Below, in pieces: positions 26,145-26,629 of a stretch of 64,000 nt of DNA. Location of the stretch: positions 25,544,001 through 25,608,000 of the forward strand of contig OZ024761.1 in NCBI GenBank assembly GCA_964016885.1. Reading direction: 5' to 3'. This DNA comes from Eledone cirrhosa. Its lineage: Eukaryota. The notes under the pieces are model-generated. The model was not told the origin of the DNA, searched no databases, and saw only the letters and a list, made by a program, of their open reading frames with translations. Each line of letters starts with the position of its first letter. Position 1 is the first letter of the stretch. Position numbers and translations under genes: made by a program.

Positions 26145-26629
26145 AACAAAAGATGGTTAAAAGAGTTCCATGTATTTTATTATGCGCATTTCAAAAACAA
26201 ATATCATCATGCAATAATATTTGTGTTTTCATCAGATAAAACAGGAGGACATGATATGAAGGTTAAAAAACACTTGTGGATAGTGCAGTTTTAAATCAAC
26301 ATATGAGAAGTATTTTTAGATTGATGTGTGATATTGGGAAAAATATTTTATTTAGAGGGGGTGGGGGTGGAAAGGATGAAAAAAAAGAAGGAGATGAGAG
26401 TGAAGGTGGAGAGGGAGGAGTATAATAAGGAAGGATGAGATAAGAGGAGAGATGGGTGATAGAGAGAGAGAGAGAGATAGCTTTTATAACTGAGAAAGAT
26501 ATATTGTTTTACATAGAGAGGTTGAAAACCGTTAGAGTGCTTCTTATCCCATATCTGTTGAAAACTGTAGAGTGCTTCTTATCCGATATCTGCATTCCTT
26601 TATTGTACTACAATAAAACTCACCTCCTA
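26145..26629 (-). mobile_element. Family C copy interrupted by about 250 bp of GA-rich sequence
   Basis: Both halves match 11656-11880 (tattgtactacaataaaactcacctccta; aaaaaacacttgtg; atgcgcatttcaaaaacaaatatcatcat). Confidence 0.6.
26174..26242 (-). ncRNA. Minimal type I hammerhead ribozyme, intact core (family C element)
   Basis: Minus strand reads GUUUUAU-CUGAUGA-AAACACAAAUAUUAU-ugcaug-AUGAUAUUUGUUUUU-GAAA-U-GCGC-A-U-A/AUAAAAU. 7-bp stem I, about 15-bp stem II, both core boxes, 2-bp stem III with self-complementary UGCGCA, AUA cleavage triplet. Confidence 0.85.

Follow-up and report, generated by a model that had tools for sequence, protein, structure and literature searches.

The hammerhead-bearing repeats of families B and C in the window, which is the whole stretch of 64,000 nt of Eledone cirrhosa DNA analysed here, are probably dead 3' ends of endonuclease-positive Penelope-like elements (PLEs), each made of a pseudo-LTR (pLTR) and an optional tail. 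The initial annotation had proposed a Penelope-like origin with targeting of (TA)n, and this is supported, since seven of eight ends lie near a (TA)>=5 tract and the consensus end of 5,427 reads is (TA)n. It had also proposed that the families are non-coding and mobilised in trans. This second part was not borne out: the 5' ends vary, and elsewhere copies of the families reach further 5'. A fold-back with a tail is the look of ordinary 5'-truncated PLE insertions in the available text of PMC8557442 and PMC3846280, although clustered 5' ends would also fit a pLTR-only form moved in trans. The repeats are an expected feature of Penelope-like remnants and no new class of element.

Both folds that had been annotated as intact carry full type I cores (CUGAUGA..GAAA..UA). 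B1 is located at 26174-26242 on the minus strand, with a core spanning 26235-26181 (halves at 26235-26229 and 26192-26189), and C1 at 2429-2489 on the minus strand, with a core spanning 2483-2435. The two copies with a single core change were found where they had been placed: B2 at 11787-11855 (plus strand), in which the change is U4G and stem I also has a G-A mismatch, and C2 at 25196-25257 (minus strand), in which the change is A14G at position 25211. The count of four copies was too low; a fifth core at 2631-2671 (plus strand) and a half copy, C3, at 7820-7884 (plus strand) are also present. C3 lacks the 5' core half and comprises family C from loop II on, with GAAA and the palindromic helix III intact.

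The 2-bp stem III and the AUA triplet described for these folds are seen in B1 and C1, and stem I is 8 bp in B1 and 6 bp in C1. The predicted cut falls at 26181/26180 in B1, the position given before, and at 2435/2434 in C1. Stem II had been described as 11-15 bp throughout, which fits family B (15 bp, 3+12) but not family C (about 9-10 bp). Stem III and its loop form a perfect 8-nt palindrome in B1, B2 and C3, but the palindrome is imperfect in C1 and C2. The dimer duplex of the helix III palindrome has an energy of -10.5 kcal/mol in B and -3.2 kcal/mol in C3. The 10.1-11.1 closing pair of stem II is A-U in four of five rows and G-U in the other. In all families stem II begins with three pairs followed by a pyrimidine mismatch at position 4, which is C-U in B, C-C in C1 and U-C in C2 (most reads have C at the C2 site). 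The spacer between the core halves is 30-36 nt.

The hammerhead motifs are real and are present above chance. A generic type I descriptor matched twice in the window; 300 block-wise, dinucleotide-preserving shuffles averaged 0.027 matches, and 0/300 had two or more. In a six-row alignment, 96.8% of cells were paired compared with 40-62% when the partners were slid, and stem II contained two real compensatory double changes. A third double change, in stem III, was discounted since it arises from the deleted inverted copy of C1. As had been claimed, stem II is family-specific in sequence yet paired: two families with unrelated stem II keep the core letters and the pairing. At position 25211, 9,754 of 9,810 X10 reads (99.4%), reads of a sister family included, have GAAA, and thus A14G is private to C2.

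It is extremely improbable that AT-rich palindromic DNA in a MITE-like repeat has come to resemble a hammerhead by chance. Such an origin would agree with the A-U closing pair of stem II and with the folding energy of the intact copies, which is not significantly better than that of shuffles (z -1.2 and -0.4). It would also agree with the Rfam comparison proposed in the initial annotation, which returned no hammerhead model at E<=10 and, in a broader listing, none among the 150 of 474 rows listed. The Rfam miRNA matches are a reflection of microsatellites and of the C1 fold-back. Against a chance origin stand the 300 shuffles, the core letters and pairing kept by two families with unrelated stem II, the presence of A14 in nearly all reads and the two ends of the family B unit, which are not terminal inverted repeats.

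Three of the four loci (B1, B2 and C1) are two 5'-truncated arms fused head to head. The B1 direct arm (26140-26533, minus strand, 5' boundary approximate) is a 5'-truncated 3' end of family B, in which a pyrimidine-rich tract (26340-26500, 80% C+T) is followed by the hammerhead and by a short 3' end 41 nt past the cut site. The B1 inverted arm (26521-26630, plus strand) is the long 3' tail of the family and points outward. A junction duplication of 35 bp lies within 26521-26592, and (TA)n flanks the short end at 26121-26139 and the long end at 26631-26653. In B2, the direct arm (11728-11880, plus strand) carries the hammerhead and has its short 3' end at (TA)n, and the inverted arm (11658-11727, minus strand) is a long 3' tail that stops at (TA)n. 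Comparison of the window with itself gave two blocks common to B1 and B2 with a variable stretch between them.

The C1 direct arm (2298-2560, minus strand) consists of the hammerhead and a long tail reaching (TA)n 137 nt past the cut site. Its inverted arm (2567-2683, plus strand) contains the fifth core (starting at 2631, with GAAA at 2668), from which stem III and the cut site are deleted, and has a short 3' end at (TA)n; over 108 aligned nt, the two arms show 4 differences. C2 is a lone, 5'-truncated arm of about 430 bp (25063-25490, minus strand, 5' boundary set approximately from read depth) with the hammerhead and a long tail, and it stands head to head with an end of another family. A pyrimidine tract lies at 25430-25560 (85% C+T), and (TA)n flanks the long end at 25020-25062. 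The repeats had been called short, but the units are two-armed fold-backs or long truncated arms of no fixed length.

Parts of 25063-26630 are carried by nine runs from five studies under six organism labels, and sequences from four of the 12 runs listed, namely contigs X1, X5 and X8 and RAD-seq reads X10, were compared at 80% likeness. The family B inverted arm includes the block 26562-26630, which terminates in a hairpin ahead of (TA)n. The score of this block against the C tail is equalled by 11-28 of 2000 shuffles when the block is read inverted and by 132-1140 of 2000 in the opposite orientation. Eight of the 15 joints listed (59 in total) connect 26294-26304 to 26562-26601. Further joints are positioned at 26208, 26226, 26290 and 26349, and the partners vary by copy, with 26208-26349 joined to 26562-26612. 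In the 26290 joint row, the intervening letters open with the 15 nt that end the B1 direct arm (26147-26133, minus strand, unique in the window) and continue with a motif that recurs where the C tail begins. The support for this key row is 9 reads (X10) and a few contigs (X1), and the X1 joint rows at 26302 and 26304 have similar letters. The likeness to an inverted C tail and the junction reads indicate that the block is the inverted tail of family B, and therefore that B1, B2 and C1 each consist of two arms joined head to head. The blocks 26562-26630 and 11658-11727 had also been considered as a common 5' end or a GIY-YIG remnant, which was rejected when the block proved to be an inverted tail; the 27-aa peptide of the candidate remnant has no Pfam match.

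The short end lies about 40 nt after the cut site and the long end 85-100 nt further (about 135-140 nt after the cut). All three two-armed B/C units, and 4/4 units of the neighbouring family D, combine a short end with a long end. The enrichment of (TA)n in the flanks was confirmed: seven of the eight element 3' ends are at most 9 nt from a (TA)>=5 tract, where 13% of non-tract positions are within 12 nt of such a tract, and the sole 3' end off a tract is that of C3, 62 nt away. The description of the repeats as embedded in (TA)n is right for most ends but not for the 5' side of C2, which has no (TA)n. Every copy retains sequence both before and after the cut site. The inverted arms of family B (two in the window and about a dozen listed joints) lie within or just past the tail, and overlapping arms are found in C1 and three family D units.

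Both families are highly repeated. The B and C ribozyme regions are two to four orders of magnitude deeper than the trough at 25487-25592, where read depth is not equal to copy number and the runs are reduced-representation or of a library type not given. In 53-nt bins taken 5'-ward from 25222, the depth of family C is 5.6e5, 2.0e5, 2.1e4, 2.2e4 and 3.3e3 in X1 and 2079, 966, 276, 104 and 3 in X10. The depth of family B drops at 26334/26335 from 7.1e5 to 1.6e5 and from 414 to 94 in the same two runs. The B1 ribozyme has no difference among the 40 of 193 difference rows listed, and it differs from contigs of two other organism labels at 2/90 and 3/161 positions. A loose end at 25164 (5,427 reads) marks many C copies that run into (TA)n some 38 nt beyond the cut site, and C1 and C2 extend about 100 nt past this type of end. 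Loose ends at 25205 (12,696 reads) and 25214 (5,164 reads) lead into a sister hammerhead family, which has GAAA, helix III and stem I in common with family C and a different, paired stem II. By eye, the base of this stem II has three pairs and a C-C mismatch; the 5' core lies beyond the 30 letters shown. This third hammerhead family is commoner than family C in the RAD reads. A joint of 25172 to 25304 (X1 depth 4044; one read in X10) skips 131 nt, that is, the whole family C hammerhead, and this joined form is possibly a ribozyme-less subfamily.

The steps in read depth raise another explanation, in which a short RNA transcribed from a pLTR promoter some 65-90 nt upstream of the core is copied in trans by PLE reverse transcriptase (RT) and endonuclease to give pLTR-only mini-elements, and the longer copies come from the parent. 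At that distance, the depth steps about 4-fold in B, 10-fold in C in X1 and 3.5-fold in C in X10. The eight joints at 26294-26304 among the 15 of 59 listed fall there too, and three of the five core-bearing arms (B2 and both arms of C1) end about 65-75 nt upstream of the core. Action of the pLTR in trans is described in the available part of PMC3846280 and argued for in that of bioRxiv 10.64898/2026.07.22.740005. However, the junctions are copy-specific (26208-26349 to 26562-26612), which means no single master. B1 and C2 reach about 230-300 nt upstream, and family B goes on further still 5' at the loose end 26533 (10 contigs). A pause of the RT or the edge of a local alignment would give an equal step, and the type of the runs also weakens the argument. 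On balance, we consider such mini-elements unlikely.

A more specific proposal is that B, C and the sister family are mostly such mini-elements, derived from a short RNA that begins 65-90 nt upstream of an undescribed hammerhead variant, and record twin priming on one RNA, at the short site on one strand and at the long site on the other, and that the B inverted arm is therefore tail-only. The variant would have an A-U-closed stem II of 9-15 bp with a C-Y mismatch at position 4, and would escape Rfam and descriptors with a spacer of 7-17 nt. We regard this proposal, taken as a whole, as rather doubtful. In the open-access literature, no description of these B/C families, in cephalopods or elsewhere, or of twin priming in PLEs was found.

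The available text of PMC7229834 and bioRxiv 10.64898/2026.07.22.740005 takes tandem arrays and circular RNA as the defining traits of non-LTR retrozymes. Retrozymes resemble B/C in being short, non-coding and AT-rich, in the type I fold and in their relation to PLEs; unlike them, B/C have no tandem array and form fold-back units with an optional tail. If tandem repeats were cut to monomers by the hammerhead, circularised and retrotransposed, B/C would be stray monomers. The type I fold, the 2-bp helix III and the low GC content, as in the invertebrate retrozymes covered by PMC7229834, are compatible with this origin, as are unit sizes of 220-490 bp. Head-to-head arms with an optional tail, on the other hand, are a PLE trait, and stem II is too long for the canonical contact between loop 1 and loop 2. 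There is no tandem array of units in the window and no head-to-tail joint among the 15 of 59 joints listed. The label retrozyme-like in the initial annotation is thus not supported, given the lack of a head-to-tail array and the retention of both sides of the cut site in all copies, and a retrozyme origin is very unlikely.

The structure of the units instead fits the preferred reading, the truncated 3' ends of PLEs. In the available text of PMC8557442, PMC3846280 and PMC8969392, insertions of endonuclease-positive (EN+) PLEs are heavily truncated at the 5' end, lie next to an inverted truncated copy and have a tail at one end only, and their (TA)n bias masks target duplications. The present units share the 5' truncation, the inverted arm, the one-arm tail, (TA)n and a hammerhead near the 3' end. 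They differ from these published accounts in that the tail is 85-100 nt rather than 30-40 bp, the family B inverted arm is tail-only without overlap with the direct arm, and no ORF is seen in the B/C units. The initial annotation reported no RT or GIY-YIG ORF in the window, and no such Pfam match was obtained in 150 frames, comprising the 149 longer of the 196 complex frames of at least 45 aa and one peptide; the Pfam matches are at chance level only (best E 0.003). The longest listed read piece is 188 nt and gives no linkage of RT or GIY-YIG to B/C. Scanning metagenome, viral and prokaryote collections for the patterns gave 0 loci, which is uninformative for an animal repeat.

PMC4209133, in the part available, describes thousands of single minimal hammerheads as truncated PLEs, which are inactive as monomers and weak as dimers. 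Those hammerheads are similar to ours in the long helix II, the short palindromic helix III and the prevalence of single motifs, and also in opposite-strand pairs 100-700 bp apart and several families per genome. They have a conserved G10.1-C11.1 pair, whereas A-U is found here, and a conserved extra nucleotide after A9, which is absent from B/C. Our motifs further differ in a helix II that reaches 15 bp and carries a conserved C-Y mismatch at position 4, a stem I of 6-8 bp and the AUA triplet. In Poseidon PAc of Anolis, as far as PMC11167929 could be consulted, the PLE protein nicks both strands of AT-rich DNA and uses uncleaved RNA, and RT is initiated at two internal sites, one at either end of the tail. 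PAc and the present units thus have in common a tail delimited by two 3' ends, an AT-rich target and an origin from uncleaved RNA. In PAc, by contrast, stem II contains the start of the ORF and the tail codes for protein; here no continuous frame was found and the target is (TA)n. An ORF starting in stem II was looked for and rejected in B/C, in which the frames are short or stopped.

What clade the parent belonged to is a matter of guesswork, and our guess is a Neptune-type element. A hammerhead combined with (TA)n leaves Neptune-type and Hydra. Hydra-clade PLEs, including Hydra-1_Obim, share the (TA)n preference and have a hammerhead about 100-200 nt from the 3' end in the accessible part of PMC8557442. 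Their ribozymes as tabulated there differ by eye from B/C, with an AC../..GU helix III, a loop of 1-3 nt and a helix II of 3-7 bp. Identity with Hydra-1_Obim was rejected, since the motif listed for Hydra-1_oBim is unlike B and C in the table rows compared. Since the Hydra ribozyme table differs and the ends of cephalopod Naiads are unlike B/C, a Neptune-type parent would follow by elimination, and the Neptune clade, which is marked by a Zn-finger-like linker between the RT and a C-terminal EN, is compatible with a microsatellite bias and a hammerhead.

It is also hardly probable that B/C are 3' ends of Naiad-type elements with a long-stem hammerhead missed by published descriptors. Cephalopod Naiads target (TA)n, and two were flagged 'HHR_half_core' with a second half 35-50 nt away, where our spacer is 30-36 nt. 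Yet two short B/C motifs had 0 matches in the part of the PMC8557442 supplement searched, in which line breaks could mask one, and the last 80-95 nt of Naiad_Obim, Naiad_Ovul, Naiad_Omin and Naiad_Esco in the same source are by eye unlike the B/C ends. Identity with Naiad was rejected on the points that the canonical hammerhead is not absent here and that the cephalopod consensus lines, as seen in part, end differently. PMC13282606 reports that 31 Penelope-like families have recently been active in Octopus vulgaris; ribozymes are unmentioned in its available text.

From published PLE biology and the structure of the copies, the following mechanism is plausible. The GIY-YIG endonuclease of the PLE would nick (TA)n, and RT would start on uncleaved RNA at either of the two internal sites, about 40 or 135-140 nt after the cut. 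Each of the two target strands would prime a cDNA, and the two cDNAs, halted early, would be joined head to head. That every copy spans the cut site argues for uncleaved templates. The confinement of the family B inverted arms to the tail or just beyond it is expected if both primers share one RNA, whereas the overlapping arms in C1 and three family D units would need two templates, displacement or self-priming. Judging by its sequence, the ribozyme would be weak as a monomer because of the 2-bp helix III, and its cleavage after AUA may require either dimerisation via the 8-nt palindrome or help from a protein. Such predicted cleavage would process tandem transcripts of the parent and would not be needed for these insertions.

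Other repeats share the window with B and C. The units of family D (25987-26121, 26654-26856, 36498-36772, 60710-60896 and 33126-33245) are (TA)n-flanked fold-backs with one short and one long end, as in B/C. They contain a GC-rich hairpin around a CGAA loop and no CUGANGA core in the retained sequence, and family D is possibly a hammerhead-less Penelope-like family. Homology of the D tail with the C tail was considered and dropped as weak, with 1/8 pairs at 8/1000 shuffles. The related families E/F (10420-10620, 14575-14960, 46675-46856, 4955-5135 and 25590-25990) are also (TA)n-flanked and partly inverted, and no CUGANGA was found in them; an Rfam match to MALAT1 on 25876-25988 is non-significant (E 2.2). 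Between 25020 and 26900, four families contribute five or six Penelope-like ends, with short (TA)n tracts between them. This chain suggests serial insertion into tracts left by prior events, and one read joint repeats the same adjacency at another locus. About 20 copies of a SINE-like family of 110-195 bp occur at 2927-3100, 3316-3617, 8354-8893, 27104-27395, 31299-31691, 53449-54699 and elsewhere, some paired about (TA)n as inverted repeats (3322-3583); we take this family to resemble the RTE-related SINEs of octopus. A 49-bp minisatellite lies at 41305-42113 (16.6 copies, 92% matches).

In conclusion, candidate hammerheads that are repeated thousands-fold and overlooked by Rfam mark Penelope-like remnants in a microsatellite-rich genome, which gives them a value for annotation. 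In the available text of PMC8557442, the origin of the inverted structures of PLEs and of their microsatellite bias is an open question. Two features are relevant to it, namely the pairing of a short with a long end and inverted arms that consist of tail only, and the copy number would allow a statistical test of the arm and end rule in an assembly. If the proposal of mini-elements and twin priming were true, these repeats would be a genomic read-out of how Penelope-like fold-backs form.
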